DNA from: Syntrophomonadaceae bacterium | GTDB taxonomy: Bacteria > Bacillota > Dethiobacteria > DTU022 > UBA8154 | Reading direction: 5' to 3' | Assembly (NCBI GenBank): GCA_007135125.1 | Contig: SLJK01000053.1 | Coordinates: forward strand, 3,974-67,973 | DNA length: 64,000 bases | Shown here: positions 18,379 to 22,311 of the stretch, one piece after another | How the letters are laid out: every line of letters begins with the position of its first letter | Numbering within the stretch: position 1 is the first letter of the stretch | Position numbers and translations under genes: made by a program | The notes under the pieces: model-generated | Told to the model about the DNA's origin: nothing | The model's database searches: none | Seen by the model: the letters and a program-made list of their open reading frames with translations, nothing else

Positions 18379-19128
18379 TTAATGGTTACTAAAATAATTG
18401 TTCTTGTCCTTTTTAACATGTTCATCACCTTCAAGTTTTACTTCCAGAACATCTGAGAGAGCAGCAATCTTTTGTACAAGCTCATCGGTACCCAGACCTG
18501 GAGGAAGACGAAGAAATAGCTCCATGTAAAGAACATCTTGTTTTAATTCTTCTACGTATTCTGTATGACTTAAGTCTATCTTAGTGATATGAACATCCAG
18601 ATCTCCAAGCAGTGCACCTATACTTCCTACCAGCTTGGGGCGATCTATGCCACGTATCAGGAGACGTTTTAGCTGCTTTGCCCTGGTCAGGGGGCCTTCA
18701 ATACTACGCAGCATAACCAGGCTCACCAGCGCCATCAAAGTGGCCACTACTGCACCCAGGTAAAAACCAATACCTATGGCCAATCCTATACCGGAAACGA
18801 TCCAGATGCTGGCCGCTGTAGTGAGACCTGTTATGGTGCTGCCGTGACGTAAAATAGTCCCTGCCCCCAGGAAGCCTACACCAGTTACAACCTGTGCAGC
18901 AATACGAGAGGGATCTACCAAATAACCTTGAAAATCAGTAAATCCGTACGCTGAAACCATCATTACCAGGGCCGAACCCACACATACCAGTATATGGGTC
19001 CTGAAACCGGCCGGCCTCCTGTGGCTTTCACGTTCAAAGCCCACAACACCGCCCAGTAAAACAGCCAAAACAAGTCTTATAATAATTTCGTAATAGGTTA
19101 TCTCTGCCATGCAAACAACCCCAAACAC
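18379..19128 (-). CDS. mgtC: MgtC/SapB family membrane protein
   Basis: 249 aa; N-terminal MgtC TM domain (LVLAVLLGGVVGFERE) and a C-terminal ACT-like domain. Confidence 0.8.
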   Translation of the reverse strand: MFGVVCMAEITYYEIIIRLVLAVLLGGVVGFERESHRRPAGFRTHILVCVGSALVMMVSAYGFTDFQGYLVDPSRIAAQVVTGVGFLGAGTILRHGSTITGLTTAASIWIVSGIGLAIGIGFYLGAVVATLMALVSLVMLRSIEGPLTRAKQLKRLLIRGIDRPKLVGSIGALLGDLDVHITKIDLSHTEYVEELKQDVLYMELFLRLPPGLGTDELVQKIAALSDVLEVKLEGDEHVKKDKNNYFSNH

Positions 19129-19140
19129 TCTAATAAAAAT

Positions 19141-20334
19141 TTATTTGACAGGAACTGTTACCAAATCATCAGCAATGGGGCTTAGTTTTTCAGCTCCCGT
19201 TTCTGTTATAACCCATACATTTTCCAACCCTACTACACCTTTGTCAGGAAAAACGAACTTGGGCTCCAGTGCAAATACCATTCCTGGTTGTAATAGATGA
19301 GAACCCGCAGCTAGTATTGGAAATTCATCAATATCCAAACCAAGACCATGCCCGATGAATTTAACTTTTCCATCTCCATAACCCATAAAATATTCCTCCA
19401 GGCCCTCAGAACGCGCCAATTCCAGGCTTAGCGCATAAAGATCTTCAACCGCAACACCCGGCTGACACCTGGAAATAATTTCATCCTGTATTTTCCTGGC
19501 CAACCCATAGGCTTTCAACAGCTCCGAGGAGAGTTTGCCGATAGAAAATACACGGGTGTGATCCAGGGTATATCCTTCATAGATACTGGCATAATCAAGA
19601 CCGATAGGTTCATGTGGAGCCAGTTTTTTCCATCCGGCACCCTGGGGGCTGGCAGTGGTAAGACCCTCTCCACCTGTACAGCTGTCCAAAAAAGTGCTTT
19701 TCATTCCCGTAATGCCAGAATAAACATGCCCGAAAGCCATTTCCGTATTAAAGCTTCGCATCCTTAGCAAACCCTGGTGGCCAGCCCGGCGATACAGGTT
19801 CTCTATCTCCGCAGCCAGCATTAGTTCTGTTTTTCCCACCCGCAGCAGGTCGGGCACTTTCTCCATTATCTCTGCAGCTATACGGCCGGCTTCTCTAAAA
19901 CAGTCCACTTCATAGGATGATTTAAGCATGCGTATTTCTTTAATAGCCGGGGAAACATCCTTAAATTCAACACCGGGCATAACCGCTTGAAGGTTTTGGT
20001 ACTCATTTACAGGAAGAACATCCAACTCCAAACCAATTTTATGAACTTCCTTGAACCCTGTTTCAGCCAGATATGAGGGCAATTGCTTTACAGTTTTTAA
20101 ACGCAATATCTGATCCCACTGGGATTCTTCACAGGCACGGGAAAAATTGCGCTTGACCATATAAAGAGGATCTCCTTCTGCGGGAATAAATAGATAACCC
20201 TGCTGCATGGAACCGGCAAAGTAAAACAGGTCTATCCTCTCCCTCAAAAGTGCCCCCTCCAGGTCTTCCTGCTGCAATCTTTCCTGGAATCTATTCACTC
20301 TATTTTCCAATTCAAAACGAGGGGTGGGCTGCAA
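19141..20334 (-). CDS. M24 family Xaa-Pro aminopeptidase/dipeptidase
   Basis: 397 aa; creatinase N-terminal domain plus pita-bread fold with metal ligands (HGLGLDIDE, ENV). Confidence 0.8.
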   Translation of the reverse strand: MQPTPRFELENRVNRFQERLQQEDLEGALLRERIDLFYFAGSMQQGYLFIPAEGDPLYMVKRNFSRACEESQWDQILRLKTVKQLPSYLAETGFKEVHKIGLELDVLPVNEYQNLQAVMPGVEFKDVSPAIKEIRMLKSSYEVDCFREAGRIAAEIMEKVPDLLRVGKTELMLAAEIENLYRRAGHQGLLRMRSFNTEMAFGHVYSGITGMKSTFLDSCTGGEGLTTASPQGAGWKKLAPHEPIGLDYASIYEGYTLDHTRVFSIGKLSSELLKAYGLARKIQDEIISRCQPGVAVEDLYALSLELARSEGLEEYFMGYGDGKVKFIGHGLGLDIDEFPILAAGSHLLQPGMVFALEPKFVFPDKGVVGLENVWVITETGAEKLSPIADDLVTVPVK

Positions 20335-20437
20335 ATATAAAACCTCCAGTTATGCGCTATAACGCAATAGTATGATGCTCTAATCTTAATAGAGAAGCAC
20401 ACCTTTGTCAACTGAAGAAAGCCGGCGGGTACATCCT

Positions 20438-20484
20438 ATACAGTGAAACAGCCCGGGAGATAAGCCCGGGCTGTTTCACTGTAT
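20438..20484. repeat. Perfect 20-bp inverted repeat (ATACAGTGAAACAGCCCGGG-agataag-CCCGGGCTGTTTCACTGTAT) with no adjacent U-tract
   Basis: Both arms are exact reverse complements; lies 13 bp after the small ORF stop, downstream of the SNF transporter. Confidence 0.7.
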
Positions 20485-20496
20485 CTTACAAAAACC

Positions 20497-20601
20497 TTAT
20501 TTCCATCCCTTTCCCCTGCTGGCTATCGAGGCGCTCCAGAGGAACCCTCCTCCAAATATAACCAGTCCTACAATCAAAGAAATAACAGCTGAAGCTTCCA
20601 T
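20497..20601 (-). CDS. 34-aa single-TM small protein (MEASAVISLIVGLVIFGGGFLWSASIASRGKGWK), translationally coupled to the SNF transporter; candidate small subunit
   Basis: Its ATG lies 1 nt after the transporter TAA; strong SD (AGGTGGAG) is embedded in the transporter 3' end; one hydrophobic helix then a basic tail; shorter than the ORF-track cutoff. Confidence 0.55.
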   Translation of the reverse strand: MEASAVISLIVGLVIFGGGFLWSASIASRGKGWK

Positions 20602-20602
20602 T

Positions 20603-22111
20603 TTACTCCACCTCGCCTTCTTCATCTTCATAAGGCGTTTCTTTAGTCTTAATATACATAAAAACAATCCCCAGAATTATAAGCACCGCCATCATACCCC
20701 ATCCTCCTACAATTTGCATAAAAGTGGGGTATCCTTCGTACGGTTCCCTGATACGCTCGATTAAATTAAGCGCCAGGAGCACAATTAGAACAATGGGGGT
20801 AATGAACTTGATGCAGACATCGAACCAGGCCCCGATACGAATTTCGGAAACCTCGTTGATCTGCTCCCGGATTTTATGAGCACCGTAGCCCCAACCGATA
20901 ACAAGACAGGTAAAAAGACCCACCAGAACCAGGCCAAATTGGTTAATAAAGAAATCAACCTGGTCCAACCAAAGCAGTCCGCCCCGTGAAATAAAAATCA
21001 GGCCTACCAAGAAGGCCAAACCGCTGACCAGAACTGCTGCCACCTTGCGGGTAAGATTAAACTTATCCATTACCGCGCTTAACACACTCTCCGTTAAAGA
21101 GAAGGCGGAGTCCAACCCCAGGGTGAAGATGGTTATAAAGAAAATTATTCCGATTAGCGCAGGAGCCACAGGCATAAGGCTGATAGCCTCGGGATAAGCC
21201 ACAAAAGCCAGGCCTACGCCTGAAGCAAGCACCTCATCTACCGGTACTCCCAACTGGCCGGCCATATAGCCGGTAACACTGAAAACAGCAATACCGGAGA
21301 TAAAGGCCGTAAAGGCATCGGCAAAGCTGGTCATTAAGGAATTGTTGGCTATATCCGAGTCTTTAGGTAAGTAACTGGCATAGGCGATGAGAATACCCAT
21401 GGCAAGGCTGAGCGTAAAAAAGACCTGCCCGTAAGCAGCCAGCCAAACCTGGGGGTTAGCCAGGGCAGCGAAATCAGGCTTAAGGTAGAAATTAAGACCT
21501 TCCGCGGCACCGGGTAAAGTCAGACCACGTACCATAAGTACTAATATAAGAATAAAAGGAAGAGGCATGGTAACCATGACCACCCTTCCCAATCCCTTTA
21601 CTCCGCTGAAAACAATAAAGAAGATGGCCAGCCAGCCCAGGATAAACCCCAGGATTAAAGCAGGAGAAAGACCAAAAAGTGAACCGAAGGCCCCTGCCTC
21701 CAGAACCGGCGATATACCCAAGACAGTATCATAAAAGAAAGTCTCGGCATCCATACCCCACTCCAGGGTAAAAGCCCCCCACAGGTAGCGTAGGGACCAA
21801 CCCAATATAGCCGCATAATAAGTTATTATACCAAAACCAGCCAGCACAGCCCACCAGCCTACAAATTCATAGGATGGGTTGGCTCTCTTCATAGCCAAAG
21901 GAGCAGCCCCGGCAAAACGTCTACCCAGGTTGAATTCCAGCATCATTAAAGGAATACCCGCCGTAACCAAAGCAACAAGGAACGGAATTAAGAAGGCCCC
22001 ACCACCGGAATCATAAACCACATAAGGGAACCTCCAAAGGTTACCCAACCCGACAGCTGAGCCGACGGCAGCGACCACAAAAGCGCCGCGCCAAGTCCAC
22101 CTTTCTCTCAT
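20603..22111 (-). CDS. Sodium-dependent transporter, NSS/SNF (neurotransmitter:sodium symporter) family
   Basis: 502 aa; SNF signature (GNLWRFPY), about 12 TM segments. Confidence 0.85.
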   Translation of the reverse strand: MRERWTWRGAFVVAAVGSAVGLGNLWRFPYVVYDSGGGAFLIPFLVALVTAGIPLMMLEFNLGRRFAGAAPLAMKRANPSYEFVGWWAVLAGFGIITYYAAILGWSLRYLWGAFTLEWGMDAETFFYDTVLGISPVLEAGAFGSLFGLSPALILGFILGWLAIFFIVFSGVKGLGRVVMVTMPLPFILILVLMVRGLTLPGAAEGLNFYLKPDFAALANPQVWLAAYGQVFFTLSLAMGILIAYASYLPKDSDIANNSLMTSFADAFTAFISGIAVFSVTGYMAGQLGVPVDEVLASGVGLAFVAYPEAISLMPVAPALIGIIFFITIFTLGLDSAFSLTESVLSAVMDKFNLTRKVAAVLVSGLAFLVGLIFISRGGLLWLDQVDFFINQFGLVLVGLFTCLVIGWGYGAHKIREQINEVSEIRIGAWFDVCIKFITPIVLIVLLALNLIERIREPYEGYPTFMQIVGGWGMMAVLIILGIVFMYIKTKETPYEDEEGEVE

Positions 22112-22228
22112 TATTTTCCCTCCTTAACTAAGTAATAAGGCACGCAAAAGTATTTAATTGTTCTTCCCCGGCACCTCCTTTCGACACCTTATACCTCGAA
22201 TAAACCTGTCTACAACACATGGCGCCTA

Positions 22229-22252
22229 TATTCTACCAAATATTCTACCAAA
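22229..22252 (-). promoter_or_regulatory. Tandem 12-bp direct repeat; on the minus strand it reads as two extended -10-like elements (TGGTAGAATAT x2) upstream of the SNF transporter
   Basis: Plus strand TATTCTACCAAA repeated head-to-tail at 22229-22240 and 22241-22252, about 120-140 nt upstream of the transporter start. Confidence 0.4.
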
Positions 22253-22311
22253 AAAGTAAAATCCCTGCTCCAACATGGGAAAAAATTTAATTTTTTCATT
22301 TTTTCAGAAAT

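Follow-up and report, generated by a model that had tools for sequence, protein, structure and literature searches.

We analyzed a 64,000-nucleotide (nt) stretch of contig SLJK01000053.1 from a Syntrophomonadaceae bacterium (assembly GCA_007135125.1, positions 3,974 to 67,973), referred to below as the window, and found that it very probably carries a two-gene operon on the minus strand, consisting of an NSS transporter gene and a 34-codon gene for a small subunit of the MetS family, with a terminator-derived hairpin as its 3' end. A sequence-only reading of the window had proposed that the small open reading frame (ORF) encodes a coupled accessory subunit analogous to MetS, and this proposal is upheld by homology to the curated family NF033493, a conserved position across phyla, purifying selection and in-frame fusions. 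The minus strand holds all features of the locus described here, namely the transporter gene, the small ORF, the hairpin and the promoter of the next gene. The two genes and the ribosome-binding site between them are as follows:

20603 to 22111, minus strand: NSS/SNF (SLC6-like) Na+-coupled transporter gene, large subunit, 502 amino acids (aa) and stop (PF00209, NF037979)
20606 to 20614, minus strand: Shine-Dalgarno sequence of the small ORF, reading G-AGGTGGAG, within the last codons of the transporter gene (read from the sequence)
20497 to 20601, minus strand: small ORF, 34 aa and stop, assigned as a divergent MetS-family single-helix small subunit (NF033493, our own profile, synonymous excess, conserved position)

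Coding status of the small ORF

The product of the large gene scored 412.6 bits against Pfam PF00209 (E 3e-123, cut-off 27), which places it in the NSS/SNF family, and matched NCBIfam NF037979 at E 1e-24. Its stop codon TAA (20605-20603) is followed by a single base (20602) and then by the ATG of the small ORF (20601-20599), and the sequence AGGTGGAG (20613-20606) occupies the last codons of the transporter gene, both just as the sequence-only reading had described. The GAGGTG core (20614-20609), located 7 nt ahead of the ATG, is complementary to the usual 3' end of the 16S rRNA. The small ORF ends with TAA (20499-20497) and encodes the 34-aa peptide MEASAVISLIVGLVIFGGGFLWSASIASRGKGWK, in which a single hydrophobic stretch (about residues 5-27) separates an acidic N-terminal from a basic C-terminal end; the same reading had rightly called it a 34-aa ORF with a single transmembrane (TM) segment, and its length and single helix are those of the family (about 30-40 aa, one TM segment). 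The description of the ORF as unannotated needs correction, since NCBI, JGI, ENA and Logan records already contain gene calls for the exact 34-aa protein, in which it carries no name, and one of its relatives is labelled 'hypothetical protein'.

Selection was assessed by comparing the window with three related genomes or metagenome contigs (L001, L026 and L027) that have the same locus, i.e. transporter, small ORF, M24 peptidase, MgtC and CtsR. The small-ORF proteins of L001, L026 and L027 are 82-91% identical to the window peptide. Between the window and L026, 16 synonymous and 4 nonsynonymous codon differences were counted (nucleotide differences of 4, 2 and 17 at the three codon positions), and the ratio for L027 was 15:6; among the four genomes the differing codons ranged from 11:3 to 16:4 (synonymous:nonsynonymous), and third positions held 11-17 of the 15-28 nucleotide differences. 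Such a pattern of substitution indicates that the small ORF is a real gene under purifying selection. The start of the ORF is fixed by L001 and L026, because in both an in-frame transporter stop codon lies immediately 5' of the small-ORF ATG. In addition, GAGGTG is kept 5-7 nt ahead of the ATG in L001, L026 and L027, and the distance from transporter stop to ATG is 1, 0, 3 and 2 nt in the four genomes, so that the closeness of the two genes is retained together with the Shine-Dalgarno core. We also considered programmed read-through or frameshifting into a fused product and rejected it, because the small-ORF frame or spacing relative to the transporter differs in each of the four genomes (+1, 0, +3, +2 nt).

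Homology to the MetS family

Against NF033493 ("MetS family NSS transporter small subunit"), the window peptide scored 18.9 bits (E 9e-4, aligned over positions 1-29 of 30; cut-off 25 bits). Two of its orthologues pass this cut-off (L001, 25.4 bits; P0003, 25.8 bits) and a third scored 22.0 bits (P0002), and small ORFs located beside 45-48% identical transporters in an uncultured bacterium, a Halanaerobiales metagenome-assembled genome (MAG) and the gammaproteobacterium Agarivorans reached 42.8-55.9 bits. Moreover, we built our own profile from 35 small ORFs adjoining related transporters, none of them from the clade of the window, and used it to scan all ORFs of 20-70 codons on both strands of the window (1,580 candidates). 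The small ORF was the sole match (29.2 bits, E 4.2e-8, aligned from model position 1), and the runner-up had an E-value of 1.6. The family alignment is free of gaps through the helix. All members share M1 and A5, and G18 and G19 are conserved in at least 90% of the sequences; the resulting motif, M-x-x-[SGA]-A-[IVW] followed by G-G at positions 18-19, is present in the window peptide as M1, S4, A5, V6, G18 and G19. Among 21 aligned members, 16 matched NF033493 and 7 matched NF033494, the model of true MetS.

Such relationships are beyond the reach of a single-sequence search, which cannot extend to the wider MetS family: an exhaustive phmmer search with the peptide returned one representative of the 50%-identity clusters (P0129, 67% identity), and a homologue search with the frame extended upstream to 56 codons returned three near-identical clusters only.

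We also noted a sub-clade of small subunits ending in G-x-G-W-[KE]-D, namely L051:3000-3110, L055:3003-3110, L071:3008-3118 and L073:3003-3110, in which W13 often replaces the central small residues. The C-terminus of the window peptide, GKGWK (GKGW[KS] in its own sub-clade), resembles this group. A profile of the standard MetS-like type largely misses the G-x-GW[KE]D sub-clade, whose members are probably left unnamed in annotation.

Distribution among related transporters

The survey covered 105 loci of genomes and metagenomes that encode related transporters; 68 of them were informative and have transporters 36-93% identical to that of the window. By the strict profile, 47 of the 68 have a MetS-like helix directly after the transporter or fused to it, and 7 more have divergent or fused MetS-like versions (47-54 of 68), which means that about 70-80% of the sampled transporters in this range of identity possess a MetS-type helix. 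The conservation of a short TM ORF after related SNF transporters, which the sequence-only reading had named as a check on its proposal, was thus found. Among the 24 loci whose transporters are at most 35% identical, none has a MetS-like helix, and 12,060 candidate small ORFs in the loci gave no match below E 0.1 away from the transporter 3' end. As to the junctions, the small gene is separate in 46 cases, and in 28 of these it overlaps the transporter stop codon (ATGA, TAATG) or starts at most 4 nt from it; tight coupling is a family trait.

The remaining 14 of the 68 loci (L007, L008, L038, L043, L050, L057, L059, L063, L065, L068, L070, L090, L096 and L098; transporters of 36-48% identity) lack any small hydrophobic ORF in the 200 nt that follow the transporter, and the small partner was lost, or never gained, in some lineages. 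The protein encoded by the partnerless L065 is, at about 688 aa, unusually long. At two other loci (L086:2621-2764 and L077:2211-2318) the small ORF seems to overlap the transporter by 86-95 nt in another frame, probably owing to an assembly frameshift or a mis-extended match.

Fused homologues and topology

An in-frame MetS-like helix was found at the end of the transporter ORF itself in L010 and L011 (two Brocadiaceae MAGs; L010:3001-5076, L011:1647-3722), L037 (L037:1501-3141), L088, L066 and L095. Every one of these fusions has one extra hydrophobic helix, here called the adaptor, between TM12 and the MetS-like helix, which is the last of 14. The adaptor lets the MetS-like helix run from outside to inside, because the 12-helix NSS core ends in the cytoplasm, and this course agrees with the charges of the free peptides, which are acidic at the N-terminus and basic at the C-terminus. 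When the 120 best homologues of the L037 protein were surveyed (including P0009-P0017 and P0022-P0036), 29 proteins, all of at least 533 aa, carried the C-terminal MetS-like helix, and the 91 shorter ones (470-514 aa) did not. An AlphaFold2 model of the fused homologue P0009, calculated from a 120-sequence alignment, had a predicted local distance difference test score (pLDDT) of 94 and a predicted TM-score (pTM) of 0.90, and its core matched dDAT and NET with TM-scores of 0.82-0.85. Helices 461-482, 486-504 and 507-532 of the model are linked by loops of 2-3 residues, and pLDDT is about 85-91 over the two extra helices.

We regard these fusions as Rosetta-stone evidence, from sequence, that the free peptide is probably a physical subunit of the transporter; they support both the association and the topology. 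Tentatively, and at a little under an even chance, we further suggest that a large clade of eukaryote-like NSS transporters in bacteria has the MetS-type helix as a standard 13th helix, and that this helix has been fused to the transporter repeatedly, through an adaptor helix, into 14-helix proteins. If this is true, the topology with N-terminus out and C-terminus in is fixed, and a single-chain construct is ready for solving how a one-helix partner supports an SLC6 fold. A profile search found no MetS-like chain in the PDB, we came across no account of the fused 14-helix architecture in the literature that was searchable, and MetS or NSS partners go unmentioned in a 2025 review on small membrane proteins of bacteria.

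Proposed mechanism and opposing evidence

We predict that a ribosome ending the transporter re-initiates at the adjoining ATG with the aid of the Shine-Dalgarno sequence in the last codons, which would yield transporter and peptide in near-stoichiometric amounts; re-initiation is possible because the ATG lies within a few bases of the transporter stop and the Shine-Dalgarno sequence lies inside the last transporter codons. The peptide would insert with its N-terminus outside and its basic C-terminus inside, and would form an extra, 13th helix packed on the 12-helix transporter through the small-residue face G12 and G17-G19. By analogy with MetPS of Corynebacterium glutamicum, the peptide may be needed for the stability or activity of the transporter. 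Finally, the 20-bp hairpin described below would still set and protect the 3' end of the operon, by weak or factor-assisted termination plus a block to exonucleases, ahead of the promoter of the next gene.

Several points weigh against this reading. The NF033493 score of the window peptide lies under the curated cut-off (18.9 against 25 bits), and the peptide gave no match to the MetS equivalog NF033494 at E <= 1 (cut-off 70 bits) or to Pfam PF16951 (MaAIMP_sms) at E <= 10 (cut-off 26.2 bits). Because NF033494 and PF16951 are unmatched, we do not file the peptide as MetS proper and assign no substrate from it; judged by its sequence, it is a divergent member of the broad MetS family, not an orthologue of the methionine/alanine MetS. 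The 35 ORFs used to train our profile were first gathered with a seed profile that contained the window peptide, a mild ascertainment bias that is offset by the separate NF033493 scores. Fourteen related transporters lack a small partner, which means that dependence on one is not universal in the range of 36-93% identity. The AlphaFold2 model is that of a fused homologue and not of the transporter–peptide pair of the window. Lastly, we infer translation, complex formation and functional dependence of the small subunit from sequence and by analogy.

The score below cut-off and the partnerless relatives, together with the general abundance of short hydrophobic ORFs, would also suit a chance ORF, or a membrane peptide unrelated to the transporter, for example a toxin or a regulator acting on its own. 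We consider this very improbable, and the data largely refute it: the reading frame is under selection, all profile matches among the 1,580 window ORFs and 12,060 locus ORFs sit right after a transporter, overlapping or nearly overlapping junctions predominate, and in-frame fusions to the transporter recur in many lineages.

The hairpin behind the small ORF

Two further features mark the end of the operon:

20438 to 20484, minus strand: perfect 20-bp stem with a 7-nt loop, 12 nt past the small-ORF stop; probable terminator or 3'-end hairpin with a degenerate, fully paired U-tract (repeat, fold, orthologous hairpins)
20383 to 20411, minus strand: promoter-like TTGACA-17-TAAGAT of the next gene (M24 peptidase, 20334 to 19141), downstream boundary of the operon (scan with 10/12 matches; both hexamers invariant in four genomes)

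The two arms of the hairpin (20438-20457 and 20465-20484) are 20 nt each, 100% complementary and 7 nt apart, and form the longest perfect inverted repeat of the 64-kb window (chance expectation of the arm matches, 0.00). The RNA folds with -39.3 kcal/mol (z = -7.2), and none of 200 shuffled sequences folds as well. The sequence-only reading had described this element correctly as a perfect inverted repeat of 20 bp whose loop is 7 nt long and which lacks a U-tract, and as unlike the GC-hairpin and T-run terminators elsewhere in the window; canonical examples of the latter do occur, such as 18311-18288, 13188-13169 and 2530-2499. No T-run follows the full stem, as the 10 nt downstream (AGGATGTACC) contain 2 T, and the hairpin is omitted by our terminator scan, which demands at least 5 T in 8 within 0-2 nt after the stem. 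Even the inner stem of 8-9 bp is followed by just 4 T in 8, and this absence of a defining feature of a terminator counts against reading the hairpin as one.

The alignment of the intergenic region of the four genomes showed two invariant blocks, the CCCGGG...CCCGGG core of the hairpin and the TTGACA-17-TAAGAT promoter. Stems formed by the core are 13 bp in L001, 8 bp in L026 and 7 bp in L027, and are followed by CTTTTCTTTTCG (TTTTCTTTTC) in L001, by TTTTTTCTTGGTTTTT in L026 and by TTTTCTTTTT in L027. By their sequence features, the hairpins of these three relatives are canonical intrinsic terminators at the orthologous position. In the window, the counterpart of the T-run is TGTTTCACTGTAT, which is mutated and to which the 5' flank is exactly complementary, yielding the 20-bp stem; the interrupted U-tract, UGUUUCACUGUAU, is fully sequestered in the stem. 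The GC-rich stem-loop stands at the 3' end of the transcription unit, with 26 nt separating it from the -35 hexamer of the M24 peptidase gene. Therefore, the hairpin is most likely the terminator-derived 3' end of the operon with a decayed T-run. Termination at it may be weak or factor-assisted, because its U-tract falls short of the scan threshold, and the stem would protect the 3' end regardless.

The sequence-only reading had preferred an mRNA-stabilizing or processing stem to a terminator. In this form the hairpin would be an RNase III site, or purely a block to 3'-exonucleases on a read-through transcript; 20 perfect base pairs are approximately the minimal substrate of RNase III. The missing T-run and the negative scan would fit such an element, as would a stem unusually long and perfect compared with the canonical terminators of the window, and the fact that both arms are altered relative to L001 while all 20 pairs are kept. 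We nevertheless consider it unlikely, and do not favor it, because in three related genomes the same core occupies the same position and, with its T-run, makes a canonical terminator, because the conserved promoter directly behind it in all four spares the next gene any need of read-through, and because no Rfam family matches (around the hairpin, Rfam gave only chance microRNA-like or small nucleolar RNA-like matches under threshold). A stabilizing role is in any case compatible with a terminator.

The perfection of the palindrome might, alternatively, have no function of its own, if a template-switch (hairpin-templated) mutation perfected the imperfect quasi-palindrome of a terminator and overwrote its T-run, or the palindrome might be a protein-binding site in the DNA 5' of the M24 promoter. 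About seven differences from the 3' arm of L001 are all matched on the 5' arm, as one templated event would give, and the palindrome ends 26 nt ahead of the -35 hexamer. We hold both versions to be quite improbable. Every contig of this species has the hairpin, and the single variant (L030) changes a C-G pair to U-G and keeps the pairing; 47 bp with a 7-nt center is an unusual size for an operator, and a further argument against an operator is that the relatives share the promoter without the long arms.

As far as the window is concerned, we rejected a repeated element of the repetitive extragenic palindromic (REP) or miniature inverted-repeat transposable element (MITE) type, since the arms have no second occurrence there. 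Between terminator and M24 promoter, L027 has a tandem repeat with several CAAGAAACAAGAAG copies (L027:3300-3360), which is absent from the window and from L001.

Neighboring features of the locus

Eukaryotic SLC6 structures align with the window transporter through the TM12 region. Among its top 60 PDB sequence matches, the nearest are eukaryotic SLC6 proteins (human proline transporter, dDAT, GAT3 and TauT; E 5e-85 to 1e-70), which rank above any bacterial NSS, and LeuT and MhsT are absent from these 60. An amino acid is the probable substrate, as the TM1 motif reads GLGN and has Gly instead of Asp. Upstream of the transporter gene lies a tandem duplicate of TGGTAGAAT (TTTGGTAGAATAT twice; about 22228-22253, minus strand), each copy of which resembles an extended -10 promoter element, followed by a leader of about 110 nt that has no Rfam match. 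Indeed, Rfam gave nothing at gathering score in the whole window, and the operon is therefore under the control of no riboswitch or known RNA element.

The gene order in L001, L026, L027 and L028 is conserved: transporter and small ORF, an M24 (creatinase/prolidase-type) peptidase, an MgtC-family protein and CtsR/McsA. The window counterparts downstream of the small ORF are 19141-20334 (minus strand, M24 peptidase) and 18379-19128 (minus strand). That transporter and M24 peptidase are functionally linked, for example in taking up and using peptides or proline, is no more than speculation.

Significance

The small subunit gene and the hairpin are both ordinary. Knowledge of the MetS family dates back to 2008, and both NCBIfam and Pfam hold curated models of it, so that membership of the window peptide, which goes beyond analogy, is not new. 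The value for annotation is that the sub-clade ending in GKGW[KS] falls under the NCBIfam cut-off, is missed by Pfam and stays nameless or 'hypothetical protein'. Because the small subunit is left unnamed in public records, transporter studies that clone the large gene alone could fail. Biologically, the point is modest: a two-subunit architecture shown once (C. glutamicum, 2008) is extended across a broad, SLC6-like clade of bacterial transporters. Of greatest interest among the by-products are the natural 14-helix fusions, which are handles for structural work. The hairpin indicates that a long perfect stem lacking a U-tract can arise by drift from a canonical terminator, which is a caution for terminator predictors and not a new mechanism.

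Comparison with known systems

The hairpin of the window resembles intrinsic terminators in which an upstream A-rich arm pairs with the U-tract: it has a GC-rich core, stands at the operon end before the next promoter, and has canonical orthologues. It differs in that its U-tract is interrupted, sequestered in the perfect 20-bp stem, and fails the T-run threshold.

Among transporters with small subunits, fused TRAP QM proteins need one extra (adaptor) helix to keep their topology. MctB/MctC (cg0952/cg0953), listed in PMC2807442, is another secondary transporter with a small subunit. As in TRAP-T Q/M and MctB/MctC, the small membrane subunit of the window is encoded beside the large one, and the NSS–MetS fusions likewise need one extra helix; these systems belong to other folds and families, and the likeness is one of analogy only. 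A closer parallel in the large subunit is offered by the eukaryotic SLC6 transporters B0AT1 and SIT1, which rely on a single-pass partner, collectrin or ACE2. In both cases an SLC6-fold transporter is joined by a single-pass membrane protein, and in sequence the window transporter is most similar to eukaryotic SLC6; the partners, however, are not homologous, and the eukaryotic ones have large ectodomains and act mainly in trafficking.

The nearest counterpart is MetPS of C. glutamicum, which consists of the NSS transporter MetP and the one-helix subunit MetS (cg1167) and is curated as NCBIfam NF033493/NF033494 and Pfam PF16951. Trotschel et al. reportedly showed by complementation in 2008 that this transporter depends on its one-helix subunit. 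Both systems consist of an NSS/SNF large subunit followed by a co-directional gene for a one-helix peptide, and the window peptide aligns along the full NF033493, a model that its relatives pass, some of them also matching NF033494. The differences are that the window peptide has 34 aa against the 53 positions of the true-MetS profile, that it stays below the NF033493 cut-off without matching NF033494 or PF16951, and that it ends in GKGW[KS], a feature shared with the G-x-GW[KE]D sub-clade. Import of methionine or alanine is accordingly not to be assumed for the window transporter, which is nearer to eukaryotic SLC6 than to any other solved NSS.

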